Virus record (IMG/VR): IMGVR_UViG_3300045988_098553
From: a virus
DNA length: 35,337 bases
Direction: 5' to 3' (one strand)
Shown: positions 10,809 to 26,491 of the stretch, piece by piece
Numbering within the stretch: position 1 is the first letter of the stretch
Layout: each line of letters begins with the position of its first letter
Made by a program: the position numbers and the translations under genes
The notes under the pieces: model-generated
Database searches by the model: none
Seen by the model: only the letters and a program-made list of their open reading frames with translations
What the model was told of the DNA's origin: nothing

Positions 10809-10833
10809 GGCCCCGAAAGGGGCCTTTTCTTTT
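10809..10833 (+). terminator. Rho-independent terminator ending the structural operon
   Basis: ggcccc-gaaa-ggggcc stem-loop followed by ttttctttt. Confidence 0.8.
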
Positions 10834-12685: not shown

Positions 12686-12718
12686 GCCCACTCCGGCTCT
12701 GCCGGGGTGGGCATTTTT
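12686..12718 (+). terminator. Rho-independent terminator after the lysis cassette
   Basis: gcccac(t)ccgg ... ccgg(g)gtgggc stem followed by atttttgtt. Confidence 0.7.
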
Positions 12719-12741: not shown

Positions 12742-14274
12742 CTAGGCTGCGAGCAGCACGCCAAAGCCGCCTTTAAGCGGCAGTATCCCAACGCTGTGAT
12801 ACACTTGGAAAAGTTCGGGATAATTCACGCCCGGGCTACCACAGCTGATTTTCCCGAACTCTCCATTGGAGGGTTCGGGTTTTTTGTTTTCGCTGCTGGG
12901 ACGGCACAAAATGAACTGCACCAGCAGGCTCCCGTCCTCGTTGACCGTCACTCGGTCGACGAAAGCGGCGACCATCCCGCGGGGACCGTCCGATTGGCGC
13001 ATCTTGTAGAGCGCGAACAAGATCATGTCTCGGTCGATGAGCGGCGCTCCGCGCTTAATCTCATCGAGCTCAGCCTTGAGTGCCGTGAGCTCGTCTTGCA
13101 ACCCGTTGATTTTGACCGCCATTCGGTCCGTAGAGCCGAGTTTGCACGCTAGGTCGATAGCGTTATCTATCTCGCGCTCAACGTCCGTTATTCGGCGGCT
13201 CAGGGCTTCACGCGCGGAAATCTCCTGCTCGGCATCTTTGTCCTGACGCGCAAGTACCATGTCGACTATACGCTCGTCCAGATCGGGATTCTCATTGAGC
13301 AGGCGTGCGCATGCTCCGATCACCTTGTCCTCCACCTCGTCTCGACGCATCGACACCTTGGTTTTGCGGCAGCGGTAGTAGTGGTACTGCCTGCCGTTTT
13401 CGCCATAGCCGCAATCGCTCTCAAATTGATTGCCGTCAGCGTCGTAAATCTTGCCTGACAACAGATACTCAGCATTCATCTTGCCTCGCCTTTTCCGACC
13501 TCTGGATGCCATGTGCGCATGCGCACTGTCCCAGAGCTCGCGGTCGATAATGGACGGCATGCCGTTTTCTTTCCTGAAATCGCCCCAGGTATAGGTGCCA
13601 ATGTAGCGCTCGCAATTGAGCAGCCTGCTCACTGCTTCATTGCTAAAATGCCTGCCGGTGACGGTCTTATATCCAAGGCCGTTGAGTCTGCGCATGATCT
13701 CTGCTTTTGTCTCGCCTGCGGCGCACATGTCAAAGGCCATGCGCACGCCTTCCGCCTCGTGTTCATTGATGGCATAGTATCCATCGGCGCCACGGTCATA
13801 CCCAAAGATTGAGACGCCGTTGTGCTTACACTTGAGGGCGTTACCTTCCATCCCGCGCTTGACGTTTTGCGCGAGATTGGCGCTGTAGTATTCGGCCATT
13901 CCCTCAAGCACAGATTCGAGGATGATGCCGTCCGGACCATCGGGTACCGACTCGGCGGCAGTCACGATCTCCACGCCGCACTTGCGCAATTTCGCCTTGT
14001 AGACGGCTGAATCGTAGCGCGAGCGTGCGAAGCGGTCGGTCTTGTAGACGATCACCTTTGTCCAGCGCTGTGCCTGGGCATCGAGAATCATCTTTTGAAA
14101 GCCGGGACGCCCGGCTGCATTGGTGCCAGATCGCGCCTCGTCCGTGTACGTCTTTACGATTTCAAAGCCCTTGGATGCCGCGAATTGGGAGCAGACGCGC
14201 ACTTGGTCCTCAATCGATTCCTCGCGCTGCTTGTCTGAGCTAAATCTCGCGTAAATTACCGCTTTTTCTGCCAT
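12742..14274 (-). CDS. Large serine recombinase (phage integrase), 510 aa
   Basis: N-terminal resolvase catalytic motif (VIYARFSSDKQ, catalytic Ser). Recombinase domain, Cys-containing zinc-ribbon region (YYRCRK) and a C-terminal coiled coil. Adjacent to the repressor. Confidence 0.9.
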   Translation of the reverse strand: MAEKAVIYARFSSDKQREESIEDQVRVCSQFAASKGFEIVKTYTDEARSGTNAAGRPGFQKMILDAQAQRWTKVIVYKTDRFARSRYDSAVYKAKLRKCGVEIVTAAESVPDGPDGIILESVLEGMAEYYSANLAQNVKRGMEGNALKCKHNGVSIFGYDRGADGYYAINEHEAEGVRMAFDMCAAGETKAEIMRRLNGLGYKTVTGRHFSNEAVSRLLNCERYIGTYTWGDFRKENGMPSIIDRELWDSAHAHMASRGRKRRGKMNAEYLLSGKIYDADGNQFESDCGYGENGRQYHYYRCRKTKVSMRRDEVEDKVIGACARLLNENPDLDERIVDMVLARQDKDAEQEISAREALSRRITDVEREIDNAIDLACKLGSTDRMAVKINGLQDELTALKAELDEIKRGAPLIDRDMILFALYKMRQSDGPRGMVAAFVDRVTVNEDGSLLVQFILCRPSSENKKPEPSNGEFGKISCGSPGVNYPELFQVYHSVGILPLKGGFGVLLAA

Positions 14275-14310: not shown

Positions 14311-14353
14311 AAAGCTCGCTGAGTCTTGACCACTCAGCGAGCTTTTTTGTTTT
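14311..14353. terminator. 14-bp perfect hairpin with flanking A/T tracts (bidirectional terminator candidate) between repressor and integrase
   Basis: aaagctcgctgagt (14311..14324) / actcagcgagcttt (14332..14345), followed by tttgtttt on the + strand. The right arm overlaps the last repressor codons. Confidence 0.6.
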
Positions 14354-14567
14354 GGTCGCTCTCTAATTGAGCTTCTACCTCTCTGAACTCATCAGCGGTC
14401 ATGCCGAGAGCCTTAATCATCGTGAGAGCCTTTTGCCATGTCGGGTCTGCTATTCGCCCCGTGAACAGCTTCGATATGTATGACGCGCTCACGTCGTCGC
14501 TAACGATATCGGCAGGCTTCAATCCCTTTATCTTGAGAGCTCTATCGAGAGCTTTGGCGAATGACAT
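14334..14567 (-). CDS. CI-like XRE-family HTH repressor (77 aa)
   Basis: HTH-like SASYISKLFTGRIADPTWQKALTMIKAL. Divergent from the cro-like gene across an operator-bearing region. AAGGAGG RBS. Confidence 0.75.
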   Translation of the reverse strand: MSFAKALDRALKIKGLKPADIVSDDVSASYISKLFTGRIADPTWQKALTMIKALGMTADEFREVEAQLESDQNKKAR

Positions 14568-14591
14568 TCGAGACCTCCTTTGCCTAGATAT

Positions 14592-14620
14592 ATTTTAGCG
14601 CCGATTAAAAAAGTTGCCAA
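14592..14620 (-). promoter_or_regulatory. Leftward (repressor) promoter: -35 TTGGCA, 17-nt spacer, -10 TAAAAT
   Basis: Reverse complement of 14615..14620 is TTGGCA and of 14592..14597 is TAAAAT. The -35 lies inside operator O1. Confidence 0.6.
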
Positions 14621-14629
14621 TACGACAAT
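14612..14629. promoter_or_regulatory. Operator O1 (agttgccaatacgacaat), a 15/18 match to O2/O3
   Basis: Shares the ccaatacgaca core with the two perfect copies. Confidence 0.6.
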
Positions 14630-14636
14630 TTTCTTA

Positions 14637-14665
14637 TTGAAAAGTGTCCAATACGACACTACACT
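14637..14665 (+). promoter_or_regulatory. Rightward (cro/early) promoter: -35 TTGAAA, 17-nt spacer, -10 TACACT
   Basis: TTGAAA 14637..14642 and TACACT 14660..14665. The spacer is operator O2. Confidence 0.6.
14643..14660. promoter_or_regulatory. Operator O2: 18-bp site AGTGTC-caatac-GACACT (inverted half-sites)
   Basis: Identical to 14670..14687. AGTGTC and GACACT are reverse complements. Confidence 0.7.
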
Positions 14666-14669
14666 ATGT

Positions 14670-14687
14670 AGTGTCCAATACGACACT
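14670..14687. promoter_or_regulatory. Operator O3: second perfect copy of the 18-bp site
   Basis: Exact repeat of O2, 27 bp downstream, between the -10 and the cro RBS. Confidence 0.7.
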
Positions 14688-14702
14688 CTGGGAGGTGAGA
14701 AC

Positions 14703-14906
14703 ATGGATAAGATCGCTGAAAAGGTTGCTGTGTGGTTACAAAGAACCGGCAACAGCAAGAAGTCGCTTGCAAAAATGCTCAACATTTCAACAACGTCTCT
14801 TAACAACAAATTGCGTGGGAAAACGTCATGGCGTTGGAGGGATGTCTGTTCGGTCGCTGAAATTGTTGGATGTGATTTAAGCGACCTTGAGGACGAGGAG
14901 GCTTAG
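14703..14906 (+). CDS. Cro-like HTH regulator (67 aa)
   Basis: GGAGGTGAG RBS then ATG 14703. HTH KKSLAKMLNISTTSLNNKLRGK. The track ORF start at 14580 would run through the operators. Confidence 0.75.
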   Translation: MDKIAEKVAVWLQRTGNSKKSLAKMLNISTTSLNNKLRGKTSWRWRDVCSVAEIVGCDLSDLEDEEA

Positions 14907-14916
14907 CCCGCTACCT

Positions 14917-15061
14917 GATCGCCACATCGTGAGGTACGACCTTTTGGCGATTGGCAGTACGTGTGCCATGTCCTGCCAATCGCAAGGTGGCTCAACGGCA
15001 AGCCGGTTCGCTCCTTTCAACCGGTAGCCAACCTGATGCCGTGCCTCACGATGTGGCGATC
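14917..15061 (+). ncRNA. ~145-nt multi-stem structured element (candidate regulatory RNA or DNA structure), function unknown
   Basis: P1 closing stem: 14917..14938 pairs with 15040..15061 (18 perfect bp, then a U-G wobble and 3 more bp). P2: 14947..14957 / 14973..14983 (11 bp). P3: 14985..14992 / 15026..15034 (8 bp, 1 bulge). P3b: 15003..15008 / 15019..15024 (6 bp). Confidence 0.5.
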
Positions 15062-15086
15062 AACACCTAAAAGAAAAGGCTCAACG

Positions 15087-15332
15087 ATGCTGCAACATCG
15101 TCGAGCCAACGGTCAAGGAAAGCTGGTAAGCAAAATGACCAAAGCAATTGTAACATCCGCTGCTTTTTTTGCGCTTCTGCTCATGGTCGAGCCGATCTGC
15201 ACATTCATAGACAGCCTGCCGCCTGTGCTCAACATGGCGCTCGTCTTTGTCATGGTCGGTGCAATCATGCTCGCCTTTTGGCTCATGATGCGCCACGAGC
15301 TCGAGCTTTGCGAGGGACATTATGAGCGCTGA
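15087..15332 (+). CDS. Small membrane protein (81 aa, two TM helices); start uncertain
   Basis: Hydrophobic helices AIVTSAAFFALLLMV and LNMALVFVMVGAIMLAFWLMM. The track start at 14961 lies inside the structured element. Confidence 0.5.
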   Translation: MLQHRRANGQGKLVSKMTKAIVTSAAFFALLLMVEPICTFIDSLPPVLNMALVFVMVGAIMLAFWLMMRHELELCEGHYER

Positions 15333-15438
15333 TGAGTTCGCCGAGCGCTTCAAGCGCGAGCTTGCCGAGTGGTTTGCAAAGGACGAGACCCGTAAGGAGT
15401 TCGAGCAATGGAAAGCAAGCAAGGAGGTGGCGAGGTGA
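15322..15438 (+). CDS. Small charged helical protein (38 aa)
   Basis: ATG 15322 overlaps the upstream gene end. Its stop overlaps the GTG of the next gene (GTGA). Below the track cut-off. Confidence 0.35.
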   Translation: MSADEFAERFKRELAEWFAKDETRKEFEQWKASKEVAR

Positions 15439-15683
15439 GCTGCTTTTTCTGCGACGGACCTAAGGTTGCATCTGTGCGCAACATTCAGCATCGCGATTAC
15501 TTCGCGGCGCCAATTGGGACTATGACCATGGTGCGCGGCTACGATGGCGAGCCGACGGTCAAGGTTGAAATTGATACCGATGTTGAGATTTACGGCGGTC
15601 TTACTGCAAATGTAACAGCGTCGTGCCACATCGAACGCATCAGGTATTGCATGTTCTGCGGAAAGAAGATCGTCAATGACTAA
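15435..15683 (+). CDS. Zinc-ribbon protein (82 aa), CxxC...CxxCG
   Basis: AAGGAGG 7 nt upstream of GTG 15435. CFFCDG ... YCMFCGKKIVND* at the C-terminus. Confidence 0.6.
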   Translation: MSCFFCDGPKVASVRNIQHRDYFAAPIGTMTMVRGYDGEPTVKVEIDTDVEIYGGLTANVTASCHIERIRYCMFCGKKIVND

Positions 15684-16206
15684 CAACGGAGACAAAAAGA
15701 CCTGCGCGACGTGTGCCAGGCTCGACGGCAGCATCTGCAAGCTCGACGGATTCTGCATCGGAAGCATCGAACACGCCGCGTGCGAGAAATACAAGCAGCG
15801 TCCGAGCAGCGCCGGCAGTGAGAATACTGGCGCTCGAAAAGCGATTACCAACAATGAGCGCCGTGAGATCGCCGCAAGGTTGCGACATCGCCGCAAGCAA
15901 ATGGACAACGAGAAGCCTCCGCAGATTCCATCGCTCGCAGCAACCATCTACCTGTTGGAGATTTCCGCTGCGGTCAAGCTCAACGAGAGCGGAGCGCTTT
16001 TCAATCGTCTGGCCGATTTGATTGACCGCGAGACGTGCACCTTTGATGGCACGCCTGATCGCATTGGCTATGTTTGCTCGATTTGCGGGCAAACTTTCAC
16101 GCGCCGGCCTTTTATGAAGCGCACATTTGGCGATAGCACTCAGGTCGAGATTCCATTTCGATTTTGCCCTTACTGCGGTGCAGAGGTGGTGGCAGACGAT
16201 GAATGA
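15676..16206 (+). CDS. Two-domain Cys-rich protein (176 aa): N-terminal CxxC...CEKYK module plus C-terminal LADLID..TC / CSICG / FCPYCGAEV zinc ribbon
   Basis: Motifs read from the translation. ATGA-type overlaps at both ends. Confidence 0.65.
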   Translation: MTNNGDKKTCATCARLDGSICKLDGFCIGSIEHAACEKYKQRPSSAGSENTGARKAITNNERREIAARLRHRRKQMDNEKPPQIPSLAATIYLLEISAAVKLNESGALFNRLADLIDRETCTFDGTPDRIGYVCSICGQTFTRRPFMKRTFGDSTQVEIPFRFCPYCGAEVVADDE

Positions 16207-16609
16207 TGTGCGCCGCAGGATTGCAAGCAGGCTGCGCGAAAAGTTTGACCTGATTGAATGTTCGCTTTTGCATCCTGACGGATCTGAGCCCAACTGGTCT
16301 GTCGAAGAACTGTTTGAGGTGCTGGATATCGATTACCCCGAGTGCCTTAACCCGTGGGAATGCCCTTACGACTACATCGCCGACCTCATAGACGTTCCGG
16401 CTTGCAAAGACTTGGTCGAGCACGTCCCAGACCCGTTCATTCCGACTCAGCGCATGAGAGATGGCTATTTCGAGTGCTCAGAGTGCGGATGGGATGGACA
16501 CCTGATGGAGTACATCGGCTTTGGAGATATGGGTTCATTCGAGCCGAAATTCTGTCCCGAATGCGGAAGGGAGATTTTACGTGAGCAGCAAATTGAAAAG
16601 GCGTCTTGA
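16199..16609 (+). CDS. Zinc-ribbon paralogue (136 aa)
   Basis: Start ATG lies within gacgATGAatga of the upstream gene. RRRIASRLREKF, IADLIDVPAC, CSECG and FCPECGREI motifs parallel the neighbouring genes. Confidence 0.65.
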   Translation: MNDVRRRIASRLREKFDLIECSLLHPDGSEPNWSVEELFEVLDIDYPECLNPWECPYDYIADLIDVPACKDLVEHVPDPFIPTQRMRDGYFECSECGWDGHLMEYIGFGDMGSFEPKFCPECGREILREQQIEKAS

Positions 16610-17063
16610 GGTCGCGTCGGAATTCCGAGGTCTCGGTGAGACCGGTTCTGCCGCCGAGTGCCTGGACAAACCAATCAGGTATCAGATGGGTTTCCAGGCT
16701 ATCAAGGCCGTTCTCGGCAAGGGCGATTGCTTTGAGCTTCTGGCAGATCTTATCGAGCCTGATACATGCGTCATGAGCTTCGTCGAAGAAGAAGCTATGC
16801 TGGCTACATACAAGTGCTCGAATTGCAACAACACCGTAGACACGTTGGCGCTTTGCGGTTACCAATTTCCGTTCTGCCCGTATTGCGGCGCGAAAGTTAG
16901 GATGGTCGATGACAGCGAAAATCCGGCAAGGAAATATGGTCTCGCTAATCAGCGTGGTCAAGGGTCTGTTGAGAGAGAAAGTCGTGATGAGCATGATGCT
17001 CGACATTCTGATCGGGACTGCTGCCATCAATCGAGCGCTGGATGCTGCCGAGGAGAGAGCTGA
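16581..17063 (+). CDS. Zinc-ribbon paralogue (160 aa as an ORF); the last ~50 codons are compositionally atypical
   Basis: GGAAGGGAG RBS then GTG 16581. LADLIEPDTC, CSNCN and FCPYCGAKV motifs. After 16909 third-position GC drops to about 37% in this frame. Stop is coupled (TGATG) to the next gene. Confidence 0.5.
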   Translation: MSSKLKRRLEVASEFRGLGETGSAAECLDKPIRYQMGFQAIKAVLGKGDCFELLADLIEPDTCVMSFVEEEAMLATYKCSNCNNTVDTLALCGYQFPFCPYCGAKVRMVDDSENPARKYGLANQRGQGSVERESRDEHDARHSDRDCCHQSSAGCCRGES

Positions 17064-17169
17064 TGACCAACTATCTCGCCCATCCGATCATCTATCTCCG
17101 CAGGCTCAAGACGCCTCCTTGCAGCACATGTGCAAAATGTGTTGCAGTTATCAGCGGCATCAGGTGTAA
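16909..17169 (+). CDS. Alternative-frame ORF (86 aa) overlapping two neighbours; possibly the real coding frame for 16909..17062
   Basis: Its ATG sits in the same gtcgATGA context used as the coupled start in the paralogous junctions. Third-position GC is about 63% versus 37% in the overlapping frame (hand count). Confidence 0.3.
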   Translation: MTAKIRQGNMVSLISVVKGLLREKVVMSMMLDILIGTAAINRALDAAEERADDQLSRPSDHLSPQAQDASLQHMCKMCCSYQRHQV

Positions 17170-17290
17170 GGCTCCTAAGTATTGCGACCGCAAGAATCGT
17201 CTGAACTGCACGAACATTTCGACCGCACTGCTCGAAAACGTACGTGGCACTCGGTTCTGTGAGTACGAGGAGCGCAAAGATGCTGAGTGA
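17063..17290 (+). CDS. Cys-rich small protein (75 aa), CxxCxxC...CEYEE family
   Basis: GAGGAGAGAG RBS. PPCSTCAKC...C...C...FCEYEER matches the three other CxxC...CE-Y-E modules. Confidence 0.6.
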   Translation: MTNYLAHPIIYLRRLKTPPCSTCAKCVAVISGIRCKAPKYCDRKNRLNCTNISTALLENVRGTRFCEYEERKDAE

Positions 17291-17311
17291 CGAGCAGCGC
17301 GGTGGTCATCG

Positions 17312-17590
17312 ATGAAGCGGATTAAGCTCGCAAGGCCCGTCGATTGCCCAACGTGCGGCGCGACCCCTTGCCATCAGAAATGGAAGCCGCGCAAGACGGT
17401 TGACGCAAACGAGATGGCTGTGATAGGAGACGCTAACCCCGTCGATGCAGTCCATTGCCGTAGGTGCGACCTTGTTTTTCGCGTGTCGCACTTCGAGCAC
17501 GACGACACATATATCACGAGCTGGGATGAGATTGAGACGATTCCCCGCTACTGCCCGTGGTGCGGCGCGGAGGTGGTGGACGATGAGTAA
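17312..17590 (+). CDS. Zinc-ribbon paralogue (92 aa)
   Basis: CPTCG ... CRRC ... YCPWCGAEVVDDE*. The 3' end tgcggcgcggaggtggtggacgatgagtaa is near-identical in design to 16175..16206. Confidence 0.65.
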   Translation: MKRIKLARPVDCPTCGATPCHQKWKPRKTVDANEMAVIGDANPVDAVHCRRCDLVFRVSHFEHDDTYITSWDEIETIPRYCPWCGAEVVDDE

Positions 17591-17825
17591 GCGTAAGGTC
17601 AAGCTCTATCTCGTCAACGATTGCGGCGGCGAGTGGGAGGATGCCTGGAATGAGCCGGTCACCGCATTCGACAACCAGGAAGATGCCACGCGATGCGCGG
17701 TCGCGCGCGGGCCACGTCAAAGCATTTGGGAGAAAGGCCGAGACTACTCCGGCTCTTTTGTAACCAAAATCGATGCCGTTATCGACGATTCAATCTTTGA
17801 CCACGAGGACGCGCGAGATGGGTGA
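17583..17825 (+). CDS. Hypothetical protein (80 aa)
   Basis: ATG within gacgATGAgtaa coupling to the upstream gene. Confidence 0.5.
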   Translation: MSKRKVKLYLVNDCGGEWEDAWNEPVTAFDNQEDATRCAVARGPRQSIWEKGRDYSGSFVTKIDAVIDDSIFDHEDARDG

Positions 17826-18096
17826 CGGCAACGCTGAAATCGAGTTGACCGGCGCGAATGGCGATAAATGGAGATGCCTCGGCACCGTCTTGGCAGTCAC
17901 GAGCGTTGATTCCAAAGGATGGGCAATTCGGCAGAAAGAAACGCTCAAGCGCGATCGCTATGGGGACCGCTCTCCTTTCGCGCGCGAGTATGTCTGGATG
18001 GACGATGACAGGCCGTGGTATCAGGTGCCTGGACATTCCCTGAGCGGACTACCGCTTTCAACTGGCATAACAATCGAAGGAACTGATTATGAATAA
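17818..18096 (+). CDS. Hypothetical protein (92 aa)
   Basis: ATG 17818 overlaps the upstream stop. Same-strand tight packing. Confidence 0.5.
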   Translation: MGDGNAEIELTGANGDKWRCLGTVLAVTSVDSKGWAIRQKETLKRDRYGDRSPFAREYVWMDDDRPWYQVPGHSLSGLPLSTGITIEGTDYE

Positions 18097-18367
18097 CCAA
18101 CTGACGCCATGCTATGTGAGTGAGATGCCGTGTGAAAAGGCACGAGCGTTACTGATTGGCTTCTCTACAGACACGTGGACACGTCCGCGCTCAGCGTTTG
18201 CTAACGGTGAGTCATTGGTTCACCAGTCTCGACCGATTGCGATTGTGATGTTTGAGACCGGCGACGTGCGCTGTGTGTTTCCAGATGCCGTCCAGATCAT
18301 CGATGCAGAGGCGATTTTCCGTGAGTACGCATTTCCCGAAAACGACGGCTCGACAAGCCCCATTTAA
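18089..18367 (+). CDS. Hypothetical protein (92 aa)
   Basis: ORF with ATGA overlap to the upstream gene. Confidence 0.5.
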   Translation: MNNQLTPCYVSEMPCEKARALLIGFSTDTWTRPRSAFANGESLVHQSRPIAIVMFETGDVRCVFPDAVQIIDAEAIFREYAFPENDGSTSPI

Positions 18368-18512
18368 GACTGAGAGGCCCGTTGAGTTTGATTTTGGCAT
18401 CGTCAACTTCATCAACCATCTAACCGGCAAGGACACGATGCCGACGGCTCAAGAGTCGGATTGGTCCAATAACAAGCACCCATCGCCGCCGATGCGCGAG
18501 TGGTGGAGATAG
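18321..18512 (+). CDS. Possible small protein; start codon unresolved
   Basis: GC3-rich frame is open across the 18368..18512 gap. The only in-frame starts lie inside the upstream gene (ATG 18252/18285/18303, GTG 18321) or late (ATG about 18438). Confidence 0.25.
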   Translation: MSTHFPKTTARQAPFKTERPVEFDFGIVNFINHLTGKDTMPTAQESDWSNNKHPSPPMREWWR

Positions 18513-18519
18513 GAGAGTA

Positions 18520-18816
18520 ATGAAATCCTTAATAGTTGACAGCTTCGCATTCACGTTCGCGACGATCGTCGTTTTGGTCGTGGTCGCACTTTATCTGGGT
18601 ATGCCGGCAGGCATGCTCTCGATGATCTGCTCGGTCGTGAGCGCATCGGCGGCAGTGACGGCGCTGGTTTTCCTCATCGTTCTAAAAAAGACCCTTGAGC
18701 CGACCTACGCGATTGTCGAGACGTGCAGGTACCGAATCATCAAAATGCGCGGCGAGATGGACACGCTCAAGCGCCGAGTCAATGCATTGGAGGACAAGCT
18801 TTATGGAGCGCAGTAA
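18520..18816 (+). CDS. Membrane protein with two TM helices and a C-terminal coiled coil (98 aa)
   Basis: Hydrophobic FAFTFATIVVLVVVALYLG and MICSVVSASAAVTALVFLIVL. GGAGAG RBS. Confidence 0.55.
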   Translation: MKSLIVDSFAFTFATIVVLVVVALYLGMPAGMLSMICSVVSASAAVTALVFLIVLKKTLEPTYAIVETCRYRIIKMRGEMDTLKRRVNALEDKLYGAQ

Positions 18817-19192
18817 GCACATTATCTCGTTGCCAGATTGCGGCATTACCAACGGCTCGCCCGATGTGATCCTGTTCATGGGCGACAGCTACGAGAAGGT
18901 CGGCAAGCGCAAAGACGAGCTGCTCGACCCTGAGACCAAGGTCGATGCATTCTCGCCGACGCGCGTTACCACCGCGCTGTCCGTCACCTCGTGCGGTTAC
19001 AAAGAAGCGCGAGAGGCTCCGGACATTGTCCAGTGTTACGGCGCGAGCTACGTAAAAGCCGACCTCGATGCACTGGAAAAACTTGTGAGCGACCTGCTGG
19101 CGCTTGGTGACATTTCAGAGCCCGTGGCGACCGGTGCGAGCTGCGCCCTGATAGCCGAGAGAATCAAGCGCGCGATTGGAGTATGGGAATGA
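18803..19192 (+). CDS. Hypothetical protein (129 aa)
   Basis: ATG 18803 overlaps the upstream 3' end. Start chosen inside track ORF 18695..19192. Confidence 0.5.
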   Translation: MERSKHIISLPDCGITNGSPDVILFMGDSYEKVGKRKDELLDPETKVDAFSPTRVTTALSVTSCGYKEAREAPDIVQCYGASYVKADLDALEKLVSDLLALGDISEPVATGASCALIAERIKRAIGVWE

Positions 19193-19434
19193 CGGATGAC
19201 GAGATCAAGCAGGAATTGGATGATGCCGAGTTCTCGATTGAGATTGATTGCCTGCGAGACCCTGACTTTATCAAAGTCACCAGCGGAAAAGTCTATAGGC
19301 CCGAGCGCACTGCGGATAAGAACACGGTGAATGATTTTCTCAACGATACAGTGATTTTCACGTGTAACAGCTGCGGTCATGAGGTCTTTTACACCGACGC
19401 CTACTGTTCGCACTGCGGGTCACGATTCATATGA
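19183..19434 (+). CDS. Small protein with C-terminal zinc ribbon (83 aa)
   Basis: CNSCGHEVFYTDAYCSHCGSRFI* at the C-terminus. Confidence 0.55.
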   Translation: MGMTDDEIKQELDDAEFSIEIDCLRDPDFIKVTSGKVYRPERTADKNTVNDFLNDTVIFTCNSCGHEVFYTDAYCSHCGSRFI

Positions 19435-19943
19435 GGGCGCTCGAGTTTTTTGTGCCGTCAAATCGTCTCGACCCCAAGGGCAACCGCACTCACGTTGACG
19501 GATGGAATGAGTACATAAAGGCCGTTAACACGTCCCGCCATGTCGGTGCCGCGCGTGAGCGCGAGAACGTCCACCACGTTGCCGCCTATGCAGCGATCGC
19601 CATGAAACAAGCGGGCTGGACTCCACCAGAGACCCATTCACTCGTCTACGTGACCTTTATCGAGCGCGACCGCCGGCGAGACATTCCCAATGTCTATGGC
19701 GGGCTCAAATGGGTGCTCGACGGTCTGAGCCGACCGCGCGGTAGCAAGCTCGATGGCGCCGGTGCCATCGTGGACGATTCTCAAAAGTGGCTGACCGTCA
19801 TTCCCATGGTCGCTATCGACAGGCAAAACCCTGGCGTCCATATCAAGATCGTGCCGGTCGACAATCCGGCAGAAATCGTTCAGGTCATGGGAACAAACGT
19901 CCCCATTCCAGCAAACACAAACAAAGGAGTTATCCAATTATGA
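19431..19943 (+). CDS. rusA: RusA-like Holliday junction resolvase (170 aa)
   Basis: RRRDIPNVYGGLKWVLDGL...GAIVDDSQ resembles the RusA D-x-D-N...K...D-x-L...DD motif pattern. Early-region position. Confidence 0.5.
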   Translation: MRALEFFVPSNRLDPKGNRTHVDGWNEYIKAVNTSRHVGAARERENVHHVAAYAAIAMKQAGWTPPETHSLVYVTFIERDRRRDIPNVYGGLKWVLDGLSRPRGSKLDGAGAIVDDSQKWLTVIPMVAIDRQNPGVHIKIVPVDNPAEIVQVMGTNVPIPANTNKGVIQL

Positions 19944-20287
19944 CTCTCACGACTGACTACATCCTGGGACTGATTCTCACGGTCGGTGCCGATGCCTACC
20001 GCTGCATGCCGTCGCTCAAGGTCGAGGGCGGCGAGGCGGTCAAGTATCCCGAAATCGCCTATGCCATCGCCTCGACCTGCGATGCGCTCTGCAAGGAGAT
20101 TGCAGGTATGGAGATGGGCTATGCGCCGCACGATTCGCACGAGCTCGTTATCGGAATTATCAAAAAGACCTTCAAGGTCATGGTCGACCATATGGAGAGA
20201 GACCAGGACCTCGACGTCGAGACCATCCCAACCATCCTGCGCGACCTGCGCGTCGGTGAGATTGAGGTGAGCGACGATGACTGCTAG
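19940..20287 (+). CDS. Hypothetical acidic protein (115 aa)
   Basis: ATGA overlap with the upstream stop. Confidence 0.5.
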   Translation: MTLTTDYILGLILTVGADAYRCMPSLKVEGGEAVKYPEIAYAIASTCDALCKEIAGMEMGYAPHDSHELVIGIIKKTFKVMVDHMERDQDLDVETIPTILRDLRVGEIEVSDDDC

Positions 20288-20558
20288 CGATTCAACCGTA
20301 CTTGCGAATTACAATACGCTTGCAAAGGTCGCGAGAAGCCTAGCCGATGGCGATGTCGCACTCACCTTGCCGCTCGACGGCAAGGACATCGACAAAGCCG
20401 GTGTCACGATGTGCCTCAACCTGATCGCCGAGACGTGCGACATGCTCTCGCAGCTCAACGACTTGAGCATTGAAATCGATGAGTTCCTCGTTGAGCCATC
20501 GCTATTCGCACTCAACGTGATCGTTAGGAGCGCCAAAGCGGTAGGGACCGAGGGCTAG
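20277..20558 (+). CDS. Hypothetical protein (93 aa)
   Basis: ORF with its start inside gacgATGA of the upstream gene. Confidence 0.5.
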   Translation: MTASDSTVLANYNTLAKVARSLADGDVALTLPLDGKDIDKAGVTMCLNLIAETCDMLSQLNDLSIEIDEFLVEPSLFALNVIVRSAKAVGTEG

Positions 20559-20560
20559 GC

Positions 20561-21736
20561 ATGGCGGCAACGGTCCCAGTCAAGCAGGATTCGCGCGGAG
20601 TCTGGTACAGCAGGATATATCTTGGCAAGGACTCCAAAGGCAAGAAGATTCAGGCTTACCGCTCTTTTCCAGAGGCCACCAGTGAGGCAGATGCTCGAGT
20701 CGCAGCCGCAATCTGGGCATCTGACCTCACGGCAGACGGTCGCGTGCGCTCCACGGCGCTCACCGACATGCTCGCGGACTACATCGAGATGCGCGAGCTC
20801 AACGGCGCGAGTCCCAACTCGGTGAAGCAGTGGCGCCAATTCCTGCGCTGCTACATTACCCGATTTCTGCGCGGCAAGCGCGCGGACGAGGTCACGGCGT
20901 TTGAATTCACGCAATTCAACGGCGTGCTGCTGCGCCGCGGCTCGCGCGACGGTAAGCCCTTGAGCCCCAACACGGTCAACGCGGTCTATCAGTTTCTTCG
21001 TGGTGCCTACAGGTATTTCGTGAGCGTTGGCCTTGTGGAGACCAACCCGCTGCTCGACGCCGTCAAGCCCTACCGCGACCAAGACGAGGCGATCGCGCTT
21101 GAGGAAGATGACGTTACCATCCTCAACGCCTACCTTGACCCAATCGTGAGCTTCAAGGTCGAGGTGGGCAGCATAGAGCGCCGCAACGCCTTTGCAGCGT
21201 GGCTTGCCCTGCACACCGGCGCCCGATGCGGCGAGGTGTGCGCCGTGCGACCCAAAGACGTCTACCAGAAGCGCGGATACATCCATATTGGCGGCACGGT
21301 GGTCGAGCCTGGCAACGAGCAGCCATACCGCAAGGAGAAGCCCAAGAGCTCAACCTCCAGGCGCAACATATCACTCGTCCCAGAGGAGCTTGAGGTCATC
21401 GCGAGATTTATGGCATGGCACGAGACCCAGAAGGGGAGTGCTCGAGACATGGGCATCGCGAGCGTTGACGGCACGTGGGCGAGACCATCGACCTTGAGCA
21501 GCTGGTTCAAACGGCTGGTCGAGAAGCTCGACCTAGACCGTCAGGCGACCTTCCACACGCTTCGCCATACGCACGCAAGCTGGTGCCTGGCTCACGGCAT
21601 CGACGTTGTCACACTGAGCGAGCGCCTGGGGCACTCGTCACCTGCAATCACGATCCGAATCTACGGCCACATGCTGCAAGGCCGCGATATGGCGGCGGCA
21701 GAGACGTTCTACAAGGCAATCCAAGGAGGTGTTTAG
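20561..21736 (+). CDS. Tyrosine recombinase / phage integrase family protein (391 aa)
   Basis: C-terminal catalytic signature FHTLRHTHASWCL...LGHSSPAITIRIYGHM (R..HxxR..Y). The N-terminus (GVWYSRIYLGKDSKGKKIQAYRSF) looks like an arm-type DNA-binding domain. Confidence 0.88.
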   Translation: MAATVPVKQDSRGVWYSRIYLGKDSKGKKIQAYRSFPEATSEADARVAAAIWASDLTADGRVRSTALTDMLADYIEMRELNGASPNSVKQWRQFLRCYITRFLRGKRADEVTAFEFTQFNGVLLRRGSRDGKPLSPNTVNAVYQFLRGAYRYFVSVGLVETNPLLDAVKPYRDQDEAIALEEDDVTILNAYLDPIVSFKVEVGSIERRNAFAAWLALHTGARCGEVCAVRPKDVYQKRGYIHIGGTVVEPGNEQPYRKEKPKSSTSRRNISLVPEELEVIARFMAWHETQKGSARDMGIASVDGTWARPSTLSSWFKRLVEKLDLDRQATFHTLRHTHASWCLAHGIDVVTLSERLGHSSPAITIRIYGHMLQGRDMAAAETFYKAIQGGV

Positions 21737-21925
21737 TTGAAGCAAGCACAGCTCACCAAGAAAGAGAACGACCTAATAGTTATGTACCGAAAGTTATCTG
21801 CCATCCATCAGGACGATGTGCTGACCTATGCGGCCTTGAGGGTGCAGCTTGAGCAGTCCGAGAAAAGGATCAGGGACGGTCTCACGGCATGGAACAAGGC
21901 TGTTGAAAACTCCCAAAACAGCTAG
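21737..21925 (+). CDS. Small hypothetical protein (62 aa, TTG start; alternative ATG 21782)
   Basis: ORF directly after the integrase. Its 3' end carries one copy of the TGTTGAAAAC motif. Confidence 0.35.
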   Translation: MKQAQLTKKENDLIVMYRKLSAIHQDDVLTYAALRVQLEQSEKRIRDGLTAWNKAVENSQNS

Positions 21926-22056
21926 AAATAGCGGTTGCAATGGAGTTGCAATGGACTAGTTTTCAACAATTCAACAATCTGGAAAAACCCCAGTTAGACC
22001 TACGAAAAACACGTTAAGTAACAGCCACTAAGCAAATAAGAACGAGTTATTTGCTT
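21899..22056. promoter_or_regulatory. AT-rich repeat-dense intergenic region (candidate attP / regulatory region for the tyrosine integrase)
   Basis: Inverted pair TGTTGAAAAC (21901..21910 +; 21959..21968 -). Tandem gttgcaatgga x2 (21934..21955). Tandem ttcaacaa x2 (21962..21977). 10-bp inverted repeat aagcaaataa/ttatttgctt (22030..22056). Confidence 0.4.
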
Positions 22057-22076
22057 ATACCCAGAAAGAGGACGAA

Positions 22077-22460
22077 ATGGACGAATTCGACGAGATGTCG
22101 GATGCCGAAATCGAAGCGCTTACCGAGATGGACGAGATGTGCAAAGGCATCCCCAATCCTCTCCCGCAGCTGACCCCAGAGGAGCGCTCCGCCGCATCGC
22201 AGAAAGCAATTGAGACTCGCAAGGCGAGGATGCGCCTCAAGCGCGAGATGAAGGAAGGAAACCTCTCCGTTGCCGCAGCAATCGAGCTGCCCGTGATGCA
22301 GCGCATGAAGGTTTTCGAGTTCATCCGCGCCATTCCCGGCATCGGCATCAACCGAGCCAGGGAGTTCATGCTCTCCAACTCAATCGCCGACAATCGCCGT
22401 GTCGGTGGCCTGAGCAAGCATCGCCGCGCGCAGGTTATCGCCCTGGGAGGTGAGCGCTAA
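22077..22460 (+). CDS. mihF: MihF-like actinobacterial integration host factor homologue (127 aa) with acidic N-terminal extension
   Basis: LPQLTPEERSAASQKAIETRKARMRLKREMKEGNL...MKVFEFIRAIPGIGINRAREFM...RRVGGLSKHRRAQVIALGG parallels my recollection of mycobacterial mIHF (LPQLTDEQRAAALEKA...RRLRGLGDRQRKALLEKFG). Confidence 0.65.
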   Translation: MDEFDEMSDAEIEALTEMDEMCKGIPNPLPQLTPEERSAASQKAIETRKARMRLKREMKEGNLSVAAAIELPVMQRMKVFEFIRAIPGIGINRAREFMLSNSIADNRRVGGLSKHRRAQVIALGGER

Positions 22461-22708
22461 TGAGACCCGAGTGCCGTCGCAACTTCGAGCGCCTCGCAAA
22501 GCTACTGTGCATCCTGGCAGCGCTGCTCGGTTCGATCGTCATTTTCATCAGCATTACTGTCATCACCGCAGTTGTCTGCTTTTTTGCGCACCTGACCTTC
22601 ATCTGGTATGTGCCGGTCATCATCACGGCATTTGCCTTGGGCTTTGCTGCCATTGCCTTTTTGCTCGTGAACGCCAAATCGCCTGACGATGACGAGGATT
22701 ACGAGTGA
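22460..22708 (+). CDS. Membrane protein (82 aa, 2 TM helices, acidic tail)
   Basis: TAATG coupling. Hydrophobic LCILAALLGSIVIFISITVITAVVCFF and VPVIITAFALGFAAIAFLLV. Confidence 0.55.
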   Translation: MRPECRRNFERLAKLLCILAALLGSIVIFISITVITAVVCFFAHLTFIWYVPVIITAFALGFAAIAFLLVNAKSPDDDEDYE

Positions 22709-23205
22709 TGGAGCGCATTACGAGCGCACGAGACCGGAGCAGATACCTCGCCGAGCGATTCAGGCGCGATGGCTTCGTTGGTCCTGGCGTTAAGGTCGAA
22801 AAGGGCGAGCTGATCTTGCCGATTGGCCCAGAGCTTGAGCGGTTTTGCGAGCTCGCCGCGTTACTGCGACAGAAGTGCGACAAGTCTGCGACATCGTCGC
22901 GACACGATTTAGTCGATGTGGTCGCGAGTATGCACGAGGATGCGATTTTATATGGCTCACCAATTGACTCAGCTGCCGACAGGATTGTCGGCCTGATTCC
23001 AAAATCCCAAGCGATGCGCGCCACCTATGTTCCCGTTGACTTTGCCACATTCGCCAACCCACTCAACCACAGTGATGACGATTGGCAGGAGCTATCTGAA
23101 AACGCCCTGAATGACGAGCGCAAGGCCAACCGAGCGCGGGAGAGGGCTCTCAAGCGATCGCACCGAAATGCCAAGAACCCCAAGAAGAAAGGCAAATGCC
23201 GATGA
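22708..23205 (+). CDS. Hypothetical protein with basic C-terminus (165 aa)
   Basis: ORF with GTGATG overlap to the upstream gene. C-terminal KRSHRNAKNPKKKGKCR. Confidence 0.5.
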   Translation: MERITSARDRSRYLAERFRRDGFVGPGVKVEKGELILPIGPELERFCELAALLRQKCDKSATSSRHDLVDVVASMHEDAILYGSPIDSAADRIVGLIPKSQAMRATYVPVDFATFANPLNHSDDDWQELSENALNDERKANRARERALKRSHRNAKNPKKKGKCR

Positions 23206-23396
23206 GCGATGAAGCAACCACAGAGACCGAGACGCCAAAGACGTGCTCGGAGTGCCGTTTTGCAGCGCCGTACACCTTCACGCCGCCTGCAAACCCCGAC
23301 AGCCCCGGCAATCTCTACTGTTCGGTCGACAAGGCCGTCATGAGCGTCAACCCGTCCTATACCTGCGAGAAATACAAGGAGCCCGATCGTGCCTAA
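23196..23396 (+). CDS. Cys-rich small protein (66 aa), CxxC...C...CEKYKE family
   Basis: TCSECRF...YCSVDK...YTCEKYKEP matches the N-terminus of 15676..16206 and the genes at 17063 and 23820. Confidence 0.55.
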   Translation: MPMSDEATTETETPKTCSECRFAAPYTFTPPANPDSPGNLYCSVDKAVMSVNPSYTCEKYKEPDRA

Positions 23397-23820
23397 ATGC
23401 ATCACGAGAACCGAGCATAGCATTCTCAATCGCACACTCAGAGGAATCAATTCCTGTCTCAATTTTGTAGACGAGGCCGAGGACCGCTCGAATGGCCTCG
23501 TATCTGTCCACGAGTACGATCTGCAAGTGTGGAGCGCGAGCCTCAACAGTGTGCTCACAGCCCTCGACCACAGGCGCAATGAGCAGCTTAAGACCGTGCC
23601 AGAGCACTATCGCGGCGACGGCTTCATCACCTGCGACATGGCGCTCGCAGCCATGCTCTCAAGGGCAACCCGCATGGCGATGCCTCCGATGGTCATTTTC
23701 TGGTGGGCTAACGCTTTTAAGTATCTGTGGCGCTGGGCTTACAAGTCGGACTGCACCGGCGACCTCAACAAGGCCATCGATTGCATCGAACGCGTCCGCT
23801 ACTGGCAGAAAACCCGGTAA
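23389..23820 (+). CDS. DUF3310 (SaV-like) domain protein (143 aa)
   Basis: WWANAFKYLWRWAYKSDCTGDLNKAIDCIERV resembles the DUF3310 signature (..n.iKYlwR...K....dL.KA..yl..l). Confidence 0.6.
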   Translation: MPKCITRTEHSILNRTLRGINSCLNFVDEAEDRSNGLVSVHEYDLQVWSASLNSVLTALDHRRNEQLKTVPEHYRGDGFITCDMALAAMLSRATRMAMPPMVIFWWANAFKYLWRWAYKSDCTGDLNKAIDCIERVRYWQKTR

Positions 23821-24011
23821 TGCCCACACCCGCTCCCTGCTGCGAGACCTGTCGCTGGTGGCGCGAGAGATACGACAGGTCTTGGTGCAAGCATCCAGAT
23901 CCGTATCTTCGCGCCGTCCGCGACACCACCATCTGCGAGGACTACCAAGAGCGCCGAGGCGAGGACTGGTGCTCGCTCGTCTACGGCAACAGATCCGTAA
24001 AGCACCACTAA
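23820..24011 (+). CDS. Cys-rich small protein (63 aa), CxxC...C...CEDYQE family
   Basis: TAATG coupling. CCETCRWW...WCKHPD...TICEDYQER. Confidence 0.55.
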   Translation: MPTPAPCCETCRWWRERYDRSWCKHPDPYLRAVRDTTICEDYQERRGEDWCSLVYGNRSVKHH

Positions 24012-24039
24012 CCATCAACTCCACGAGATAGGACAAATC

Positions 24040-24258
24040 ATGTCAATGGACATCAACGCGCCCCTTTTCCGTCAGCTTGACCGCCTTGAGAATATCGACC
24101 CGTCCGATACCGATGCGCTCAAGGCCGAGATCGAGCGCGCCCGTGCCGTCAAGGACATTGCCGAGACCATCATCGACTCGGGACACCTGACCGCCGACGT
24201 CATCAAGCTCAAGCACCAACTTGGCGCCACTGCGACCATCCACAAGGGCCTGCTCTAA
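24040..24258 (+). CDS. Hypothetical helical protein (72 aa)
   Basis: ORF with a plausible RBS, tightly coupled to the next gene. Confidence 0.5.
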   Translation: MSMDINAPLFRQLDRLENIDPSDTDALKAEIERARAVKDIAETIIDSGHLTADVIKLKHQLGATATIHKGLL

Positions 24259-25262
24259 TGGGAGGTCGAGTCTGGACGGACGAAGAGATCGAGTGGATTC
24301 GCGAGAACTATGCCAAAGAGCACGTCCCGCATCTGCTCGACCAGTTCGAGAAGCGCTTCGGGCGCCGTCCGACTGCCGGCGCCCTCGCGCAAAAGGCCTA
24401 TAAGCTCGGTCTCAGGCATTCGCGCGAGAAAGCTCCCGACACCATGACCAAGCGCATCATCTGGGCGCGCGAGCCCGCCTACAACGCCTGGATGGACGAG
24501 CATGATGTTGGTCAGGCCGTGCCAGCGCTGTCCGAGCAATTCGAGGCCGAGTTTGGCTTTGCCTTGTCGCGCGGACAGGTCAACGTGTGGCGCGCGAACA
24601 ACGGACGGCAGATGCGGCCCCGGCGTCCGGGCGGCGGCAGGCCGCGAAAGTCCATCGGCTTCGAGCGGCGCACCAAGGGCGGCATCTTGGTCAAAGTGCG
24701 TGAGGAGCCTACGGTCCCAATGTCGAAAGACAACTGGGAATTCAAGCACTACATCGTCTACCGAGAGGTGCACGGCTCGATTCCAGATGGATATGACATC
24801 GTCTGTGCGGACAAGAACCCGTTCAACTGTGCGCCTGAAAACCTCGTCGCCGTACCACATCGCCTGATGGCTCGCATCAATTCTGCCGACACACCGGACT
24901 GGCACGATGCCGAATCTCTCAGGCAATGCGTGGCGCTTTGCGAGCTCGCGTCAGGCATCCATAAGGCCGAGCTGTCGGTGCCAAGGACGTGCGGCGTCTG
25001 CGGCAAGACATTCCTGCCAGATCCGAGCAAAGGTGCCGACTACCAGAACCGCTACCGAAAGACGTGTCCCGAGTGCCGCGCGCGGGGACTCAAGGCGCAT
25101 GGAGAGCGCACCACAAAGCTGATCGCCACCTGCTGCGTCTGCGGCAAGCAGTTTCCCGCTCGCGCTAAAAACCAAAAGCGCTGTCCCGAGTGCATCGCCA
25201 TTCATCCGAAATGGGGAGCCAAGAGACACGCCCACCTCGAAGAAAGAAAACGTAAGGACTAG
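24258..25262 (+). CDS. DNA-binding protein with degenerate HNH_3-like core and C-terminal CxxC zinc ribbons (334 aa)
   Basis: HYIVYREVHGSIPDGYDIVCADKNPFNCAPENLVAV resembles HNH_3, but Cys replaces the usual His. CGVCGKTF...CPECR and CCVCGKQF...CPECI pairs. N-terminal Myb/SANT-like WTDEEIEWIRENY. Confidence 0.4.
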   Translation: MGGRVWTDEEIEWIRENYAKEHVPHLLDQFEKRFGRRPTAGALAQKAYKLGLRHSREKAPDTMTKRIIWAREPAYNAWMDEHDVGQAVPALSEQFEAEFGFALSRGQVNVWRANNGRQMRPRRPGGGRPRKSIGFERRTKGGILVKVREEPTVPMSKDNWEFKHYIVYREVHGSIPDGYDIVCADKNPFNCAPENLVAVPHRLMARINSADTPDWHDAESLRQCVALCELASGIHKAELSVPRTCGVCGKTFLPDPSKGADYQNRYRKTCPECRARGLKAHGERTTKLIATCCVCGKQFPARAKNQKRCPECIAIHPKWGAKRHAHLEERKRKD

Positions 25263-25273
25263 GAGTTTTCCCG

Positions 25274-25702
25274 ATGGCAAGGAGAAAGGTCACACAGGCT
25301 GATATCGAGGCGGCGGCTGCTGCTCCGCTCAAGTATTTCACCCACGAGGCGCACCTCGCCGACTCGACCGCCTGCCGTCGCTTCATCAGGCGATGCGGAC
25401 CGGACGGCTACGGCAGGTACATGCGCCTGCTTGAGCGCCTTGCCGCTGAGGAGGGCCACGTCATCGACGTGCTCGATACCGAGAGCCAGTACCTCTTGGC
25501 AGACGAGCTTTGGTTTGGAGACAATCTCGCCGCCCTGGGACAATTCCTCAAGGACCTGTCCGAATGTGGACTCATACAGATGTTCGGGGACGGTGCAATA
25601 AAATCGCCTGTTGTGGATGAGTCGGCAATGTACTTTGGCAAGCGCAGAGCCATTGGATCGACCGGCGGCAGGCCGCGAAAAGGAGGGAGTGAAAATGCCT
25701 AA
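25274..25702 (+). CDS. DUF4373 (Lin1244/Lin1753 N-terminal-like) replication-associated protein (142 aa)
   Basis: YFTHEAHLADSTACRRFIRRCGPDGYGRYMRLLERLAAEEG resembles the DUF4373 signature (yF.hd.....d.K...L.r.yG..GyG.yw.lLE.l). Confidence 0.55.
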   Translation: MARRKVTQADIEAAAAAPLKYFTHEAHLADSTACRRFIRRCGPDGYGRYMRLLERLAAEEGHVIDVLDTESQYLLADELWFGDNLAALGQFLKDLSECGLIQMFGDGAIKSPVVDESAMYFGKRRAIGSTGGRPRKGGSENA

Positions 25703-25725
25703 TCTACCTGCGGAAACTTTCAACA

Positions 25726-25906
25726 AAGCTAAGGTTAACCTTAGCTTAAGCTTTGCTTGTAATAAAATAAAAGACAATAAAATAAAAGAAACGCCGACGC
25801 ACGGCTCGTTATTAACGAGACGTGCCGGGCGTCGGGAGTCAACCTCACAAGTAAGTCCTCTCTTTGGTTCTTTCTCTGTTGAAAACTTTTCAGAGCTGTT
25901 GAAAAC
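25726..25906. promoter_or_regulatory. AT-rich repeat/hairpin region (candidate replication origin and/or promoter-operator of the late regulator)
   Basis: 22-bp perfect palindrome aagctaaggttaaccttagctt (25726..25747). Tandem (t/c)aataaaataaaaga x2 (25760..25789). GC-rich interrupted hairpin (25794..25835). Direct ctgttgaaaac x2 (25876..25886, 25896..25906). Confidence 0.4.
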
Positions 25907-25933
25907 CCACGACATTTTCAAAGGAGCCGAGCT

Positions 25934-26458: not shown

Positions 26459-26491
26459 GCCGATGTGAGCCACATTGAGCCGATGTGAGCC
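26455..26491 (+). repeat. Direct 17-mer ttgagccgatgtgagcc x2 (20-bp period), with a degenerate third copy near 26498..26510
   Basis: 26455..26471 = 26475..26491. The first copy overlaps the stop codon of the regulator gene. Confidence 0.7.

Follow-up and report, generated by a model that had tools for sequence, protein, structure and literature searches.

A conserved, structured candidate RNA element between cro and a small early cassette in Collinsella phages

The locus

Directly after the cro-like gene of the virus record IMGVR_UViG_3300045988_098553 (35,337 nucleotides (nt); this whole stretch is called the window below) lies an intergenic element of 147 nt which folds strongly and which is the subject of this report. 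The source genome is that of a temperate phage and is complete-looking. All of the genes neighbouring the element are on the + strand, downstream of the predicted early rightward promoter, PR, and their order is constant in all 47 loci at which the element has been found, namely cro, the element, a second hairpin, an open reading frame (ORF) for a hydrophobic protein of 65 amino acids (TM65) and an ORF for a peptide of 38 amino acids (ORF38). Coordinates are collected in Table 1. An earlier note, made from the letters of the window, had pointed to a non-coding stretch of about 145 nt at this place, self-complementary in a nested pattern, behind a cro stop codon at 14906. Both the stretch (14916-15062, z -9.4 on folding) and the stop codon are as it described, and its further proposal of a branched RNA, like a three-way junction, within the early rightward transcript is supported by the variation among relatives.

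Table 1. Coordinates of the element, its helices and the features discussed with it
Feature	Position	Strand	Remarks
Structured element, 147 nt	14916..15062	+	Fold z -9.4; 14 haplotypes; pairwise diversity (pi) 0.033
P1, 20-base-pair (bp) closing helix	14916-14935 / 15043-15062	+	Double changes at alignment pairs 12/136, 17/131 (to C-G and U-A) and 19/129
P2, long hairpin	14939-14988 (14939-14943/14984-14988, 14947-14963/14967-14983)	+	Conserved; perfect in the window, bulged in the other 13 haplotypes
P3	14995-15000 ACGGCA / 15037-15042 UGCCGU	+	Stacks directly on P1
P4 hairpin	15002-15008 / 15019-15025	+	Double changes at 87/110 and 92/105; wobble changes at 90/107 and 93/104
P4 loop, 10 nt, CGCUCCUUUC	15009-15018	+	Contains CUCCUUUC, anti-Shine-Dalgarno-like
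GGCU / AGYC pairing	14989-14992 / 15026-15029	+	100% of cells paired; 75/113 G-C or G-U, 77/111 U-A or U-G
Serine integrase	12742-14274	minus	
cI-like helix-turn-helix (HTH) gene	14334-14567	minus	
Operator repeats, three 18-bp palindromic copies of AGTGTCCAATACGACACT, one degenerate	14612-14687		Between cI and cro, overlapping divergent promoter-like sites
PR, early rightward promoter (predicted)	14637..14665	+	Sits among the 18-bp operator repeats
cro-like HTH gene	14703..14906	+	PHROG 4583 and Pfam HTH matches; upstream of the element, variable among relatives (pi 0.25)
Intrinsic terminator	15069..15107	minus	13-bp hairpin 15107-15078, then UUUUCUUUU (15077-15069)
Candidate antisense RNA, ~70 nt	15066..15141 (about 15140 to 15070)	minus	Would cover the TM65 leader and start codon; 5' end inferred
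TM65, 65-amino-acid hydrophobic protein	15135..15332	+	First gene of the conserved cassette; two hydrophobic stretches
Candidate extended -10, TGtTACAAT, of an antisense promoter	15147..15155	minus	Motif match
ORF38, 38-amino-acid charged peptide	15322..15438	+	Start overlaps the TM65 stop; called in all relatives
Tyrosine recombinase, second besides the serine integrase next to cI	20561-21733		Mid early region; weak Xer/integron-integrase (IntI)-like similarity, below curated cut-offs

Sequence and fold of the element

As RNA, the + strand of the element folds at -90.8 kcal/mol, compared with -50.9 +/- 4.3 kcal/mol for shuffled versions (z -9.4, none of 200 shuffles being as low). The minus strand folds with a z of -7.2 and, with DNA parameters, the element gives a z of -9.35. 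The outer frame of the fold is an inverted repeat with arms at 14916-14938 and 15040-15062, each 23 nt long, which are 96% complementary and contain one U-G pair; the termini of the element are TGATCGCC...GGCGATCA. The 18-mer GATCGCCACATCGTGAGG occurs in the window at the two arm sites only, against an expectation of 0.05. There is no T-run after the element on either strand, such that it is not an intrinsic terminator, which is what the earlier note had concluded from the missing U-tract.

Distribution and conservation

Relatives were gathered by exact-word scans, by protein searches with the downstream gene and by contig look-ups, from IMG/VR, two Collinsella genome assemblies and ENA/Logan gut metagenomes. 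The 47 loci so obtained lie on 44 distinct contigs, with the window counted, and all are from Collinsella phages or prophages. They carry 14 haplotypes of the element, every one of which is 147 nt long with zero indels, even though the spacers on both sides do have indels. No empty site is present among the 47 loci.

Searches beyond this group returned next to nothing. A covariance model built from the element detects no second copy in the window, and none was seen in any of the genomes. The element is missing from phages in which cro has no more than 39-55% identity (L006-L009), and blastn against 50,697 phage records gave no match. A pattern of the P1 termini in 185,579 species genomes returned two Collinsella prophage copies and two chance matches in coding DNA, and motif scans of IMG/VR, with the core 18-mer and with a P4 hairpin pattern, returned the 5 phages already known together with unrelated coding matches; a scan of JGI metagenomes gave 4 loci only. 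In line with the earlier note, which had not recognised a known RNA family, Rfam 15, of which the families include hammerhead, twister, C4, DicF, riboswitches, group II intron domains, Y RNA and 6S, has nothing at gathering thresholds over the whole window, and its two matches at E<=10 over 14500-15500 are at chance level and outside the element. A scan for transfer RNA and transfer-messenger RNA was also negative. Literature searches found no description of the element, nor does its sequence appear in the accessible part of the supplementary text of the structured-RNA catalogue work on gut microbiomes and phages (PMC8040213, PMC10690425).

The element is the least variable segment of its region. 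Its pairwise diversity of 0.033 compares with 0.25 in cro, 0.22 in the operator region and 0.32 beyond 15445. Within the genes that follow, the values are 0.09 for TM65 (0.134 at third positions) and 0.062 for ORF38 (0.02, 0.03 and 0.126 by codon position), which places the element about four-fold below neighbouring third codon positions. The outer 11 bp of both P1 arms are invariant. Variable columns are found at 3 of 33 unpaired positions and at 29 of 114 paired positions (p 0.055). Unpaired columns are thus less variable than paired ones.

Together with the cassette behind it, the element makes up a conserved island of about 14907-15440, beginning at the cro stop and extending through ORF38, set between highly variable modules. 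Its left-hand neighbours belong to at least three cI/cro immunity types, and on its right there are variable early genes. Since several cI/cro types share one island, the element segregates with the downstream cassette of TM65 and ORF38 and not with cro or immunity specificity, a linkage which the earlier note had overlooked. The left edge of the island is also the point at which many metagenome contigs break.

Helix model and covariation

Helices were assessed on an alignment of the 14 haplotypes (A2), using RNAalifold and explicit pair counts; column c of this alignment is window position 14915+c. In the model of Table 1, 98.6-99.1% of cells are paired, a proportion which falls to 24-49% in slid controls. 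Double-sided changes occur at 5-6 pairs, and the covariation score was reached by none of 500 shuffles. Both covariation and conservation in relatives, which the earlier note had named as the test of its proposal, are therefore present. In addition to the double changes of Table 1, the P1 pair 20/128 changes from U-G to C-G or U-A, the P3 pair 80/127 has three forms (A-U, 9 haplotypes; G-U, 2; G-C, 3), and pair 83/124 goes from G-C to G-U. Haplotype L013 differs from the majority almost only by pairs that preserve the structure.

The variation also discriminates between versions of the fold. The 18-bp repeat had been proposed to extend to 22 bp; its arms and its U-G wobble are there, but the variation supports 20 bp, with the 22-bp form of P1 broken at 21/127 in 3 haplotypes. 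All of the proposed inner stems (11 bp, GCGATTGGCAG/CTGCCAATCGC; AGGTGGCT/AGCCAACCT; CCGGTT/AACCGG) are found in the window, but the perfect 11-bp hairpin is peculiar to it, the other 13 haplotypes being bulged, with 80.5% of cells paired in that register. The right arm of the minimum-free-energy fold is broken at 78/120 in 1 haplotype. The GGCU/AGYC pairing has a place in the right arm of the earlier note, which is fully compatible with the variation; alternatively, it would form a pseudoknot with P3, and no cells are broken in a model that combines this pseudoknot with stacking of P3 on P1. A three-way junction, possibly pseudoknotted, is thus a fair description of the predicted fold.

Strand of the RNA

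There are 12 pair positions at which a G-U pair on the + strand would be A-C on the minus strand, and 3 at which the reverse holds, a count that is biased in so far as the structure was derived on the + strand. In the majority haplotype, P2 alone folds at -20.1 kcal/mol on the + strand compared with -13.5 kcal/mol on the minus strand, a difference of 6.6 kcal/mol, and the + strand fold is the better one in 18 of 19 variants of the region. A + strand RNA is accordingly the favoured prediction. This was also the direction of the earlier note, which had relied on a single U-G wobble; that position varies and would be A-C in some haplotypes, and since it is unreliable the strand call rests instead on the 12 versus 3 wobble positions and on the P2 energies.

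The downstream cassette and a predicted antisense RNA

The conserved start of the gene behind the element is the ATG at 15135, giving the 65-amino-acid form, and not a start at 15087 as had been supposed. TM65 has 159 relatives, the 120 listed being 83-100% identical, and a set of 1.84 billion representatives has just one cluster for it at 50% identity; there are no family matches in Pfam, PHROGs, NCBIfam or PADLOC. As it has no relatives beyond this one cluster, the cassette is clade-restricted and no deeper alignment is possible. Two stretches of 20 nt within the cassette have near-zero diversity, synonymous sites included: 15126-15145, at the TM65 start and in overlap with the promoter and 5' end predicted for the antisense RNA, and 15306-15325, at the overlap of the TM65 stop and the ORF38 start.

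Between the element and TM65 there is a second hairpin (15078-15107), preceded on the + strand by AAAAGAAAA, which read on the minus strand is the best terminator match of a 20-kb scan. In comparison with all relatives, 6 of 12 pairs of this stem are different in the window, yet pairing is retained, and one more double change is seen in another lineage; moreover, the non-Watson-Crick pairs of the stem are G-U on the minus strand only. A minus-strand intrinsic terminator at 15107-15078, which the earlier note did not see, is well supported as a prediction. About 40 nt upstream of it on the minus strand, the motif TGnTACAAT (15155-15147) is invariant in every haplotype; it overlaps the TM65 codons ATT GTA, at which two synonymous sites do not vary. 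Taken together, terminator and motif predict an antisense RNA of about 70 nt over the TM65 start, which probably would end at the terminator. The predicted RNA folds into a 5' hairpin and the terminator (z -5.6), and in the fold of the messenger RNA (mRNA) a complementary hairpin, GGUCA/UGACC (15111-15115 / 15136-15140), holds the TM65 AUG. Type I toxin-antitoxin systems combine a small hydrophobic protein with an overlapping antisense RNA, and TM65 may belong to such a pair: the protein has two hydrophobic stretches and the terminator of the candidate RNA is well supported, whereas its promoter is a motif match.

A proposed leader RNA for the cassette

The element is real and strongly constrained, belongs to no described family and is restricted to one group of Collinsella phages; what it does has to be read from its context. 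The reading that is tentatively favoured, as one which comes near to an even chance without reaching it, is that the + strand early transcript contains the element as a folded RNA domain with a function of its own, which acts in cis as a leader of the TM65-ORF38 cassette and is a module for RNase III-type processing or stability, with antisense control. Its footing is what has been observed of the element itself (structure, conservation, covariation, + strand bias, non-coding status, single copy and linkage to the cassette) and of the minus-strand terminator.

The early transcript would run from PR through cro, the element, TM65 and ORF38 in that order, such that the element would be the 5' part of a 228-nt untranslated leader of a conserved early cassette and not a 3' appendage of cro. 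Within it, the 20-bp P1 helix would be an entry site of the RNase III type, and may also be a protective cap. In this regard, P1 has the length expected of an RNase III substrate (about 20 bp of uninterrupted double-stranded RNA), with 20 bp and one U-G pair, kept by compensatory changes. Cleavage or capping at P1 could uncouple the cassette mRNA from the cro mRNA and determine how stable each of them is. In the inner domain, the invariant loops and junctions may be recognised by a partner, either a protein or an RNA; the conservation of the loops suggests such an additional, specific partner. Finally, the antisense RNA of about 70 nt, which would start just inside TM65 and extend over its start codon and leader, may further limit TM65 output.

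Several points weigh against this reading. Transcription from PR, cleavage by an RNase, the antisense promoter and any effect on expression are all parts of it that are inferred. Conserved loops would be needless in a simple cap or cleavage site, the P4 loop pairs poorly with the TM65 translation initiation region (-6.2 kcal/mol), and no promoter of its own was found for TM65. For the right half, three pairings remain in competition, and the total divergence is low (97% column identity over the 14 haplotypes); the sequences being so similar, compensatory events are few, at least 4 of them independent, and are spread over three or four helices. Clustered multi-base changes in inverted repeats can moreover be the product of template switching during replication and not of selection on an RNA (PMC8794818), and the triple change in P2 of the window looks like a single quasipalindrome template-switch event of this kind. 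In the haplotype of L066 and L005 the upper part of P2 is broken, and here it is the minus strand that has a slight advantage in folding. A purely mutational origin of the stems is nonetheless argued against, because G-U pairs persist, loops are conserved and indels are absent.

The window haplotype alone has three substitutions in one P2 arm (14950, 14952 and 14954), which turn the bulged hairpin into a perfect 11-bp stem. The L066/L005 haplotype, represented by 7 loci, has five P2 changes within A2 columns 49-58, and a 10-nt palindrome, TGCCATGGCA, arises at its tip.

Alternative explanations

An RNA that is excised and acts in trans is possible but unlikely. RNase III would cut P1 and free a stable RNA of about 105-125 nt, of which the P4 loop, CUCCUUUC, would bind the Shine-Dalgarno (SD) regions of phage or host mRNAs, or of which the domain would sequester a protein. 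A long perfect helix enclosing a folded domain is indeed the architecture of RNase III-excised RNAs, as it is in rRNA precursors. The greater conservation of loops and junctions than of stems suits this explanation, as does the P4 loop, which has 8 nt identical to the anti-SD sequence, invariant save for one flanking base, and which is calculated to pair with strong SD regions at -9 to -16 kcal/mol (-9.1 kcal/mol for cI). Set against this, the match of the 8-mer was noticed post hoc and the same 8-mer occurs once more in the window, about 1 occurrence being expected by chance; no specific target stands out, and the excision itself is putative. The more far-reaching proposal that the excised inner domain is a new class of phage riboregulator, pseudoknotted and either an anti-SD mimic or a binder of a host factor, which would reprogramme translation in the lysis-lysogeny decision, is to be regarded with the same reserve.

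A processive antitermination RNA, comparable with putR of HK022 or nutR of lambda and serving read-through of downstream terminators, is less likely still. In its favour, the element has a conserved RNA fold and follows cro directly in the predicted PR transcript, and its P4 loop starts with CGCUC, which is presumably also how the lambda boxA starts, although this is a weak likeness. A lambda nut site has a boxA and a boxB hairpin and works with an arginine-rich protein of the N type, and of these features the element has the CGCUC word only. What speaks against antitermination, which the earlier note had offered in a put/EAR-like form, is, for one, the lack of a visible target, there being no strong + strand intrinsic terminator predicted in 15001-35000 by a scan that is blind to Rho-dependent sites. 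Moreover, the covariance model finds a single copy in the window and hence no putL-like partner, no N-like protein was found among the early ORFs, the element is a branched structure of 147 nt as opposed to the put RNAs of about 70 nt with two hairpins, and it is with the two genes behind it, not with the promoter region, that it segregates.

An element that works as DNA, duplex or single-stranded, is doubtful to much the same extent. It could be a replication-priming hairpin, a recombination site, for example for a tyrosine recombinase, or a pair of protein-binding sites at the invariant 11-bp termini. The fold is also strong with DNA parameters, the element lies at a mosaic boundary, and the window, like at least two relatives (97% identity), has a gene for an Xer/IntI-like tyrosine recombinase. 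There are, however, no iterons and no AT-rich tract, and the arms are 107 nt apart, unlike the core sites of recombinases. The attC sites of integrons have R and L boxes (GTTRRRY) and extrahelical bases in the stem; by inspection, P1 is a perfect helix in which such boxes with extrahelical bases, or bulged bases of the attC type, are not seen. The persistent G-U (in DNA, G-T) pairs and the strand bias are better suited to RNA than to duplex DNA, and the inner arms change by compensation, which a protein that reads their sequence would not tolerate.

A selfish or neutral palindromic insertion, that is the remnant of a miniature inverted-repeat transposable element (MITE) of which the stems are kept perfect by template switching and which has no function for the phage, is very improbable. 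It would account for the terminal inverted repeats (the 23-nt arms), for the 147-bp size and for the P2 triple change of the window, which resembles quasipalindrome correction (PMC8794818). Yet neither the window nor any other genome seen has more than one copy, the site is constant and is filled at all 47 loci, and the element has no flanking direct repeat of the kind left by target-site duplication; its low diversity relative to adjacent third codon positions, its lack of indels and its conserved unpaired positions are likewise contrary to a functionless remnant. Translation, either as an N-terminal extension of the ORF 14961-15332, the event that the earlier note had said would refute it, or of a small ORF inside the element, is effectively refuted: the frame 14961-15332 is open in the window and gene callers at times extend upstream, to products of 74-114 amino acids, but with its indels the spacer varies over 227-230 nt, such that all three phases of the element to the ATG at 15135 occur, stop codons break the frame between the two in many haplotypes, diversity by codon phase has no third-position excess (0.025, 0.05, 0.024), and the stem changes are compensatory.

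Some narrower identifications were also considered. A hammerhead ribozyme, suggested by CUGAUG in the junction, was rejected as there is no Rfam match and a G that would be essential is mutated in one haplotype. The operator-like word TGCCAAT in P2 is judged to be a chance occurrence, because the island is common to phages with different immunity types. What we take to be a likeness of the element to helix 45 of 16S rRNA found no local match with the small subunit (SSU) model of Rfam. Sequestration of the TM65 ribosome site in cis by the P4 loop was discarded as weak (-6.2 kcal/mol). As regards a retron, no reverse transcriptase is present among the window ORFs scanned, and the downstream gene is that of a 65-amino-acid membrane protein.

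Other features of the genome

Downstream of cro the window has many small early ORFs, followed by RusA, the tyrosine recombinase, HNH endonucleases, terminase, portal, protease and capsid. Four consecutive early ORFs at 15676-17590 match phrog_21525, of which the function is not known, have zinc-ribbon CxxC pairs and appear to be a paralogous tandem family. Strong terminator-like hairpins on the + strand are found at 12686-12712 (the end of the lysis region), at 12853-12879 (antisense to the 3' end of the integrase), at 14311-14345 (in the gap between integrase and cI) and at 10809-10824 (after the structural genes). On the minus strand, opposite the early genes, an open frame of 288 amino acids (15081-15947) runs up to the terminator described above; composition and the codon-position signal of the + strand suggest that this frame is spurious.

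Significance and comparison with known systems

Coriobacteriia are abundant bacteria of the human gut and, to our knowledge, almost nothing is known of regulation in their phages. Lambdoid phages keep nutR, tR1, cII and oop at the corresponding position, where the Collinsella phages have a compact regulatory cassette, made up of a leader RNA that is structured and more tightly constrained than the genes on either side, of what is probably an antisense RNA, and of a very small membrane protein. The element is a new, clade-restricted candidate RNA motif. Should its RNA be processed or act in trans, it would represent a new family of phage riboregulators; should it serve stability or processing only, it would be a clear new case of genes in one early operon being uncoupled at the post-transcriptional level.

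Among known systems, the RNase III sites of T7 (R0.3-R1.3) and the N-leader and sib hairpins of lambda are like the element in placing about two turns of perfect double-stranded RNA between early cistrons, and the processing stems of rRNA precursors are like it in that a helix encloses a folded domain. The element has no sequence relation to any of these, its P1 closes a branched or pseudoknotted domain with invariant loops, and cleavage is only putative here. With putR of HK022 and nutR of lambda it shares the genomic position directly after cro and the predicted character of a cis-acting RNA in the PR transcript, but it differs in size and architecture, in its single copy, and in the absence of predicted downstream terminators and of an N-like protein.

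The C4 RNA of P1 and P7, the CI RNA of P4 (Rfam C4) and DicF of the Qin prophage are small RNAs cut from the immunity or early transcripts of temperate phages, which is what the excision proposal would have here; in contrast to them, the element has no Rfam match at E<=10, and complementary target sites downstream were not identified. The predicted antisense RNA finds its closest parallels in oop of lambda and in hok/sok, with a short leftward RNA that ends at an intrinsic terminator over the start of a small hydrophobic early protein and with a structured mRNA leader. Here the antisense promoter is a prediction, toxicity of TM65 is a mere possibility, and TM65 is without a promoter of its own, in the PR operon. 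Large catalogues of structured RNAs, compiled from gut microbiomes and from phages (PMC8040213, PMC10690425), contain unnamed candidates which are of the same kind as the element, being conserved, structured intergenic motifs near phage genes in gut metagenomes.

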